Source: Promethearchaeota archaeon
GTDB taxonomy: Archaea; Asgardarchaeota; Thorarchaeia; Thorarchaeales; Thorarchaeaceae
Assembly: GCA_014728035.1 (NCBI GenBank)
Contig: WJMJ01000030.1
Coordinates: forward strand, 1 to 16,861
DNA: 16,861 bases
Direction: 5' to 3'
Shown here: one piece after another, positions 11,753 to 16,861 of the stretch
Position numbering within the stretch: the stretch's first letter is position 1
Layout of the letters: every line of letters begins with the position of its first letter
Program-made: the position numbers and the translations under genes
Notes under the pieces: model-generated
What the model was told of the DNA's origin: nothing
The model's database searches: none
Seen by the model: only the letters and a program-made list of their open reading frames with translations

Positions 11753-12181
11753 GTGGCGAAACAAATTCAGAGGCCCATCGATATCGGGTCGCAGATACAT
11801 CAGGTGAGTGTGAAATCAACTTGCCAGGTGAGTGTGTTCTCCAGTAGCCGTAAGGTCTACTCAAATAATATTTCTTCTGAATCTCAGATTACTTTTCAAA
11901 GTCTGACTGAAACCTTTCTCCGTTTTGCGGAAGCAAAGATGTCTGATACACAGAAGACTGTTTTGAAAACAAGTGCAGAGATTCTTAGAACACGTGTACT
12001 AACAATCACTGCATTAGCTGATGAGATATCTTGTAGAACAGGTATACCTTATTCAACAGTGAAGTGGAACCTCCGAGCATTGATGGATTTCGGTTTGCTT
12101 ACAGGTGGACATGCAGATAACAAAGGACAGCCTTCCTGTTTGAAGCCAGCAGCTTTGCTTCTGGTCGAGTATCTAAAATAG
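11753..12181 (+). CDS. Winged helix-turn-helix DNA-binding protein
   Basis: TITALADEIS..GIPYSTVKWNLRALMDFGLL. Start uncertain (GTG11753, GTG11810 or GTG11834). Confidence 0.75.
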   Translation: MAKQIQRPIDIGSQIHQVSVKSTCQVSVFSSSRKVYSNNISSESQITFQSLTETFLRFAEAKMSDTQKTVLKTSAEILRTRVLTITALADEISCRTGIPYSTVKWNLRALMDFGLLTGGHADNKGQPSCLKPAALLLVEYLK

Positions 12182-12192
12182 TATCAATAGTT

Positions 12193-12228
12193 GAGGGGGC
12201 CAATCCCCCCTCTATCTTTATTTTTACT
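12193..12228 (+). terminator. GC hairpin plus T-rich tract
   Basis: GAGGGGG-(CCAATC)-CCCCCTC followed by TATCTTTATTTTT just after the HTH gene stop, between convergent genes. Confidence 0.6.
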
Positions 12229-12327
12229 TCAAGTCCTCTCTGATGTCCTTTCTATGATATCTATGTTGACAGATTTGATTATTCTTCAACTTGAAAGAGT
12301 CGGAAGAAGATATTGGGTGCATCCCTT

Positions 12328-12371
12328 TGCTACCCATGTATTGCTAAGCTTTACATACTTGGGTCATTGCA
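12328..12371 (-). promoter_or_regulatory. Candidate SECIS element (eukaryote-like, non-canonical AUGA/UA core)
   Basis: Minus-strand RNA UGC-AAUGA-CCCAAGUAUGU-AAA-GCUUAGC-AAUACAUGGG-UA-GCA; kink-turn-like core, AAA 11 nt after AUGA, apical mini-stem. Confidence 0.55.
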
Positions 12372-13164
12372 TCTTCTTTCCGAACATATCCTTGGCTCTT
12401 TGAAAAAGTGAATCCATCTCTTGAGGATTCTTTGAAGCGACAAGAACAAGATCTACAGATTTGGAATCAGTAGGATTAAGATTTCCCCAATTCCATTGCA
12501 AACCTGTTGCAATATCCTGTGGACCTAATTTTGTTCTTCCTTGTAGGTCGCGATTTGCTTCTAGTTTGAAACTCGTCGGTCTATCCAAGTCCCATTTTGA
12601 GGGAGTGGGGTTGCTCGTCATTGCTACGTATAATGAGCTTTGGTCGTAGACTTTGATTATTCCTGTATCTTTGTCATAAGAACCTAAGTCATCTTTGTAA
12701 CTGATTGGGCCACCGATATCAAAGTCCATGATATTGTATAACTTGAAATCCTTAATCTTCTCATCACTGATATTGCGGGTAGTGTGACGAATTAACATGA
12801 AGGGTTCATTATAGCTCCACACATCTATTTCAAATTGAAGAATTGGTGATTCCTTGAATAGAGGTGTATTTTGAAGAATAAACCTATGAATCTCTTCTTC
12901 ATACTCGTTACTTGTAATAGCTAATCGTTCGCTATCCGTTGATCCACAGACTTGAATTTCTCCATTCATAATGTATGTCACCCAGAAGCCACCTTTGTAA
13001 CTGGCAGGATTTCTGAGCAGCAGACAGTTTTCATTGGACTTGTCAATCAGACTGAGACGTTTGAAGTAGAAACCTATCCGACCTTTTCCTCATGAAACAC
13101 ATTCGACAGTGTATTCTGCATCGAGCCTGGGGTATTGGTTTCCTGTTTCTAAGAACTCAGACAT
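12364..13164 (-). CDS. Putative selenoprotein (266 aa, CxxU at residues 22-25), beta-rich uncharacterised domain
   Basis: ATG13164 with AGTGA SD-like 6 nt upstream gives MSEFLETGNQYPRLDAEYTVECVS-TGA-GKGRIGFYFKRLSLIDKSNENCLLLRNPASYKGGFW, in frame with the annotated 12364..12981 ORF; only one internal stop. Confidence 0.75.
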
Positions 13165-16732: not shown

Positions 16733-16861
16733 AGAAACGGTACTGGAACTGGCTCGGTCCTGGTCAGGGATCCTGTGTCTGTAGACCAAATCTCTATTCC
16801 AGATCACTCCATATAAACTCCTATCAGATCTTGTCCAACAATGTCCAAGTTTTCAGTAGCT
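16733..16861. repeat. 129-bp direct repeat, right copy
   Basis: Matches 1..129 except G16781/T49. Confidence 0.97.

Follow-up and report, generated by a model that had tools for sequence, protein, structure and literature searches.

Background: SECIS elements of Asgard archaea

A close counterpart of the element analysed here is the lokiSECIS of Mariotti et al. (2016; PMC4989117), in which AUGA is followed by a 9-bp stem, then an A-rich loop and finally either GA or AA. In VhuU.1 of Lokiarchaeota the AUGA is also the stop codon, and terminal UGAs that escape recoding were explained in that work by a minimal-distance requirement; SBP2 was reported to be absent from Asgard archaea (PMC4989117). 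Huang, Xiao and Zhang (2024; PMC11227280) generalised the lokiSECIS to more than 400 Asgard genomes and listed seven Asgard selenoprotein families. Their eSECIS-like type I and II models require GA_[G/A]A, AA cores being accepted among Asgard elements (PMC4989117, PMC11227280). The limits for type II are an upper stem of 7–15 bp with at most two mismatches, a bulge of 4–12 nt, a mini-stem of 2–8 bp and a loop of 2–6 nt. A GUAAA start was reported for frhA, and a GUGA_GA core for selD, of Thorarchaeia (PMC11227280).

Two further bodies of work are relevant. For SECIS elements of eukaryotes, SECISearch3 uses the consensus UGAN/KGAW, in which GA-AG is obligatory and candidates without it are discarded (PMC3753652). 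Among k-turns, Kt-23, with U as its usual nucleotide at position 2n, folds in the normal way (Schroeder and Lilley 2009, PMC2790904; Huang and Lilley 2014, PMC3985660). With A.U at 2b.2n, Kt-7 loses its ion-induced folding, and the neighbouring 3b.3n pair, which is U.G in Kt-23, is critical (PMC2790904). As A.U blocks the folding of Kt-7, tolerance of UA in a SECIS core would depend on context or on a protein.

A Thorarchaeota gene with an in-frame UGA

The window, i.e. the whole stretch of 16,861 nt that was analysed, makes up contig C163 in a Thorarchaeota-like MAG of 4.3 Mb (G000). Positions 1–129 and 16733–16861 form a 129-nt direct repeat at the contig ends, with 99% identity, which suggests a circular or repeat-bounded assembly. 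A minus-strand reading frame runs from ATG at 13164 to TGA at 12366–12364, and is open only if the TGA at 13092–13090 is read through (Table 1). From this codon to the terminal UGA there are 726 nt.

Orthologs were sampled from one genome per GTDB species, which gave 46 Thorarchaeota loci, and a metagenome scan added 31 more. In most loci of both scans the tblastn matches begin at residue 1 of the read-through protein. It is apparent that the in-frame codon is a constant feature of the family: TGA stands at codon 25 in all of the approximately 70 full-length loci except one (L046, which has Cys), within the conserved context E-C-x-[ST]-U-G-x-G-R, whose motif is C-x-x-U. The database proteins of the family are 201–238 aa long and all start just past the TGA position, the usual mark of a gene caller that stops at a Sec codon. 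The element described below marks a selenoprotein family that is widespread in Thorarchaeota and truncated by gene callers. The family is not among the seven Asgard families listed in the main texts of PMC11227280, PMC13188914, PMC9723677 and PMC11291895, and the supplement text of PMC11227280 gave no match for the contig names tried.

Comparison of the window gene with its sister ortholog (L018) gave a dN/dS of 0.11 overall and of 0.09 over the first 65 codons. Those codons would be untranslated if Sec insertion failed.

No Pfam family matched the product. In an AlphaFold2 model computed with 31 orthologs (pLDDT 90), a C-terminal helix accompanies an all-beta sandwich, and the CxxU motif falls within a hairpin loop of lower confidence. 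Foldseek matched that model best to beta-sandwich domains at the N-termini of GH94 phosphorylases, glucodextranase and aldose epimerase-like proteins; at TM scores of 0.5–0.63 and identities of 9–15%, these are a lead only for the function of the protein.

The gene ends with a terminal TGA in nearly all orthologs, and the preceding codon ends in A, or less often in G, so that AUGA or GUGA results. The codons for the C-terminal residues, K-K-[I/M]-[R/Q], also form the bulge, the C-stem and the lower-stem 5′ arm of the element described below, so that protein and RNA constrain each other. On the plus strand, a GC-rich hairpin with a trailing T-rich segment (12193–12212) lies directly after the convergent gene 11753–12181. 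It is likely to be the terminator of that gene, and lies approximately 90 nt from the 3′ edge of the element.

Table 1. Features of the minus-strand gene and of the candidate SECIS element at its end (positions are those of the window).
Feature	Position	Strand	Remarks
Selenoprotein CDS	12367..13164	-	266 codons; CxxU motif at residues 22–25
In-frame UGA, codon 25, read as Sec	13090..13092	-	Context V-E-C-V-S-U-G-K-G-R
Whole SECIS element	12301..12382	-	Three-way junction of lower stem, k-turn arm and side hairpin
Lower stem, 5′ arm	12371..12382	-	Within the last codons (K-K-M); pairs with 12301–12311; A12379 bulged
K-turn, bulged strand	12364..12371	-	UGC 12371–12369, AAU 12368–12366, G12365 (1b), A12364 (2b); stop codon UGA (12366–12364) inside the AUGA core
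Upper (NC) stem and apical part	12333..12363	-	Stem of 9 bp, CCCAAGUAU (12363–12355) with AUACAUGGG (12341–12333), one A.A mismatch; apical part 12354–12342 (GUAAA, GC-UUA-GC mini-stem, A); AAA at 12352–12350, exactly 11 nt past AUGA; mini-stem G12349 C12348 / G12344 C12343, loop UUA
K-turn, non-bulged strand	12328..12332	-	U12332 (2n), A12331 (1n, invariant), G12330 C12329 A12328 (C-stem, pairing with U12371 G12370 C12369); core pairs G12365.A12331, then A12364-U12332
Side hairpin GGG-AUGCA-CCC	12315..12325	-	Loop consensus nAGCA; both sides changed in 3/5 pairs
Lower stem, 3′ arm	12301..12311	-	Pairs with 12371–12382; both sides changed in 6/7 pairs across orthologs

Structure and conservation of the element

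From its letters, the initial annotation had read the end of this gene as a SECIS-like k-turn whose core holds the stop codon, approximately 725 nt after the Sec codon, enclosed by a further stem with one bulge and flanked by a side hairpin. Each of the features that it listed (stem, bulge, core, upper stem, AAA, mini-stem and hairpin) lies where it was placed, the enclosing stem with its one bulged A included, and the distance agrees with that measured. The RNAfold prediction that it proposed gave the three-way fold as the MFE structure, with a z-score of −3.7 (−2.9 in another run), and none of 200 shuffled sequences folded as well.

It had further proposed a covariance model of orthologs, and noted that a lack of the structure in TGA-containing orthologs would speak against a SECIS. 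The element is, on the contrary, present in approximately 70 orthologs. The model of the full element (R2), built from 35 orthologs with the window left out, scores the window element at 74 bits (E value 5e–21 in the window and 3.7e–19 in the whole 4.3-Mb genome); the second-best match in the whole genome reaches 16.8 bits.

Thirty-six orthologous 3′ ends were aligned over the full structure (lower stem, 3-bp C-stem, 9-bp upper stem, mini-stem and side hairpin). The T, G and A of the core are invariant in all 36. Paired cells amount to 85%, vs 40–54% when the partners are slid, and both sides have changed in 20 of the 26 pairs. The observed covariation was reached by none of 500 shuffles, whether the C-stem was included or left out, and all helices covary. 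In the C-stem, no ortholog departs from C-G at the pair adjoining the bulge, and the middle pair (13–55) is CG in 7, GC in 7, UA in 5 and AU in 2 sequences. As expected beside a k-turn core, a non-standard pair is found at 3b.3n in 29 of the 36 orthologs. RNAalifold independently predicts the upper stem, with eight covarying pairs; it favours extension of that stem by an invariant G-C and U.G over the GC/GC mini-stem, which is likewise invariant, the mini-stem fitting type II and the extension type I. GUAAA was found in 55 of 69 distinct SECIS sequences. These alignments show the predicted k-turn layout (3-bp C-stem, 3-nt bulge and G.A) and the three-way junction to be conserved, with compensatory changes, in approximately 70 orthologs, and both readings of the initial annotation are thus supported by covariation.

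The loose motif is of little use in itself. A home-made genome scan for AUGA, a stem, AAA and NA was rejected as a SECIS finder: it gave 170 matches, GA tails were without excess among them, and the best-looking matches sat within ordinary coding regions. With 170 matches per genome, support for the element comes from its conservation and not from the motif alone. The SECIS families of Rfam, SECIS_1 among them, gave no match at E values up to 10, whether the whole window or a 131-nt stretch alone was searched, and the weak snoRNA-like and NsiR4 matches from Rfam were set aside as chance. The canonical euryarchaeal SECIS, with a GAA_A asymmetric bulge between GC-rich stems, was not found in 12296–12386.

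Several orthologs depart from the common layout. The single Cys ortholog (L046:2283-2360; n=1) scores 37.9 bits with R2; it retains the AUGA ... GA core, the upper stem and the side hairpin, and has lost the lower stem and the GUAAAGC...GCA form of the apical loop. It looks like a recent switch from Sec to Cys. In L057:2289-2366 (= G005, L117) the core UGA is out of frame and the CDS is four codons longer; it stops at a UAA within the GUAAAG apical motif, so that translation ends inside the upper arm of the SECIS. Two metagenome orthologs have changes in the core, L093 having CUGA in place of A/GUGA, and L094 having AA in place of GA.

Selenocysteine machinery and other SECIS elements of the same genome

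The genome of the window encodes a tRNA-Sec (C151:74129), above the Rfam threshold, with SepSecS adjoining. Its SelD has Sec at the canonical position (U15). It also encodes a VhuU-like selenopeptide of 50 aa with the sequence Y-D-C-U-L-S-C (C46:35308-35530; L065/L122), found with a split hydrogenase large subunit. The FlpD/VhuD and AhpC-type genes of this genome have no in-frame TGA.

The SECIS elements of selD and of the vhuU-like gene were located by eye at the gene ends. In a search of the genome with R1 (core only) and R2 (full element), only the window element was found; the other two, whose sequences are too different to be matched by models of this family, were not recovered. At the end of the vhuU-like gene the sequence is G-G-A-UGA; a 9-bp stem comes next, then a loop that begins with GAAA, then N-GA. 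The stop UGA of this gene belongs to the AUGA of the SECIS. The selD gene (L012:2505-2585, contig C44) ends C-C-G-UGA, giving a GUGA ... GA core. The MFE structure of the latter element is again a three-way junction, in which the lower stem lies in the end of the CDS and the side hairpin is CCGA-AGCAA-UCGG; this hairpin resembles that of the window element with its nAGCA loop. A U-run follows the element. Each of the three selenoprotein genes identified in this genome thus has its own stop codon inside the SECIS core. The elements of SelD and VhuU share with the window element a G/AUGA core containing the stop UGA, and differ from it in having GA cores in place of UA.

The initial annotation had regarded a lack of resemblance to the bona fide SECIS elements of this genome as a reason for doubt. 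The layout and the stop-in-core arrangement are instead common to all three, and together with the conserved TGA at codon 25 and the Sec machinery they support its reading of a SECIS variant. The arrangement is less novel than that annotation implied, since both the layout and an answer to the question of how the terminal UGA escapes recoding are already present in Mariotti et al. 2016 (PMC4989117). By descent and architecture, as judged from these comparisons, the element is a SECIS of the published Asgard class that departs from the formal core rule at one base.

A second locus matching the family SECIS models, with scores of 45–60 bits, was observed in three other genomes (L121:1236-1567, L120 and L119, in G002, G017 and G007). 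A small conserved ORF of approximately 75–85 aa ends approximately 20–30 nt upstream of the match, and has an N-terminal hydrophobic helix and the conserved sequence D-N-R-T-U-E-x-Y-E-Y-I-D with an in-frame TGA. It may represent a further small, membrane-anchored selenoprotein family. Neither R1 nor R2 found a locus of this type in the genome of the window.

The UA core

When 69 distinct SECIS sequences were aligned to the model, 65 had GA as their 3′ dinucleotide, one (L094) had AA and three had UA, namely the window element, L049 and L050; the A is invariant. The U in place of G at 2n, to which the initial annotation had drawn attention, is thus real and an exception in the family, and its comparison with Kt-23 is apt (PMC2790904, PMC3985660). 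UA is rare, with 3 of 69 in this family and none of 30 among vhuU elements, and this counts against its being functional; of the vhuU SECIS elements from 30 related genomes, 29 have a 3′ core of GA and one (L144) has AA.

In the protein tree, the window sequence is sister to L018 (support 100/100), which has GA, and L049 groups elsewhere. The change from G to U therefore has at least two origins. The genomes that carry L049 and L050 (G002 and G017) belong to two species of one genus, other than that of the window. Their coding sequences differ at 9% of bases, with a dS of 0.35 and a dN/dS of 0.10 (0.09 over the first 65 codons). In the 87-nt stretch around the SECIS there are two differences, and only one of them, in the apical loop, touches the structured element; immediately downstream, ungapped identity falls to 27%. 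This is the appearance expected of a functional SECIS with a UA core, and UA, kept here under purifying selection across two species, is probably functional. Both genomes, like that of the window, also carry GA-type SECIS elements.

Since L018 and the window sequence diverged, compensating changes have replaced the upper stem of the window element completely. A G is present at 3n in all three UA elements and also in 15 of the 65 GA elements; as there are two independent UA events only, the association of UA with G at 3n is suggestive and not significant. UA is very probably tolerated in the other lineage and probably in the window; rather than a defect, the change from GA is most likely natural variation that the element tolerates. 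The broader reading, that AUGA ... UA is a functional natural SECIS core with the consequences set out below, stands at about even odds.

Alternative explanations

A competing explanation is that the element belongs to the family and that U12332 is either an error of sequencing or assembly or a mutation by which it was recently inactivated, Sec insertion having been lost and the gene now dying. The prevalence of GA among the relatives and its presence in the sister genome are consistent with this, as is the occurrence of the window contig in one assembly only (a cluster of one member and one contig). A change of 2n to U stops the folding of Kt-7 (PMC2790904), and GA-AG is treated as obligatory by SECIS tools (PMC3753652). 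Against it, the ORF is intact with all family-invariant residues present, the rest of the SECIS is intact with its upper stem fully re-paired, and the same change from G to U has been stably kept in another genus. This explanation is considered unlikely, and it is the alternative that retains some weight.

Much less probable is that the fold has a role at the end of the transcript that is unrelated to Sec, as a terminator, as a hairpin for stability or as an L7Ae k-turn site. L7Ae does bind k-turns in many archaeal RNAs, and the element is located at the end of the transcript. There is, however, no T-run or terminator-like site on the minus strand here, and the element co-occurs with TGA-containing genes, matches published Asgard SECIS elements in its AUGA / AAA / GA signature and in its spacing, and has the same layout as those at SelD and VhuU of the same genome. 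That the conservation is due instead to the antisense ORF 12191–12403 (plus strand, 70 aa) that appears in the ORF list is scarcely credible, as the variation is compensatory between paired columns and not codon-periodic, and the position of the element relative to the minus-strand stop codon is constant in all orthologs.

Taken together, the comparisons make it likely that the element is the SECIS of the gene that it terminates, of the eukaryote-like Asgard type and the Thorarchaeota kind, with UA tolerated in its core.

A possible mechanism

In the proposed mechanism, the folded element would act on the UGA that lies 726 nt upstream, recruiting Sec-tRNA-Sec with the archaeal SelB to it through a putative factor that binds k-turns. 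A ribosome whose A site has reached the terminal UGA would already have unwound both the lower stem and the C-stem, as these occupy the last four codons, and the terminal UGA itself would supply the bulge nucleotide L3 together with 1b and 2b. Because the terminal UGA is part of the core and the stems are unwound, there would be no SECIS at that moment, and the terminal UGA would not be recoded. This step corresponds to the minimal-distance argument of Mariotti et al. 2016 (PMC4989117).

If AUGA ... UA is functional, the Asgard SECIS-binding factor would appear to read the shape of the k-turn, with a tolerance at 2n like that of the L7Ae family for Kt-23, and this would point to an L7Ae-type protein as an archaeal forerunner of SBP2. 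It would follow as well that some selenoprotein genes escape the SECIS finders that demand GA or AA; SECISearch3 needs GA-AG and the Asgard model needs [G/A]A, so both would miss the window element. The retention of UA across two species and its independent recurrence would widen the accepted sequence space of the SECIS k-turn. GA vs UA in one scaffold offers a simple test for identifying the archaeal SECIS-binding factor.

Comparison with known systems

In its lengths the window element falls within the type II description: the stem is 9 bp with one A.A mismatch, the bulge (GUAAA and A) is 6 nt, the mini-stem is 2 bp and the loop is UUA. The gene context also corresponds, with the element at the 3′ end, an in-frame UGA aligned to Cys (L046) and Sec machinery in the genome. 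The core is where the two part, the window element having GA ... UA where the type II rule has GA ... [G/A]A, to which 65 of the 69 relatives conform.

As a k-turn, the element has the Watson–Crick C-stem, the 3-nt bulge and the G.A at 1b.1n of the simple class. At 2b.2n it has A.U, as do L049 and L050, in place of A.G, which places these elements with the non-standard class exemplified by Kt-23. The latter shares with the window element the order G.A at 1b.1n, then A.U at 2b.2n. The U.G found at 3b.3n in Kt-23 of T. thermophilus is the same in L049 and L050, whereas the window element has a potential Watson–Crick C-G there, with G at 3n. Kt-23 is an rRNA element unrelated to Sec.

Eukaryotic SECIS elements of form 2 share with the window element the k-turn quartet region, an AAR 11 nt past AUGA and an apical mini-stem. 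The window element differs in its shorter helix, in its overlap with the CDS and in having no 3′ GA, its core being without the second G of GA-AG.

The lokiSECIS, especially that of VhuU.1, is likewise a close relative in form. The 3′ dinucleotide stated for lokiSECIS is a purine followed by A (GA or AA), vs UA in the window, and the window element has a possible apical mini-stem, a conserved three-way junction and a different gene family. The two share the AUGA, the 9-bp stem, the A-rich start of the apical part, the A that ends the core and a position at the extreme end of the gene.
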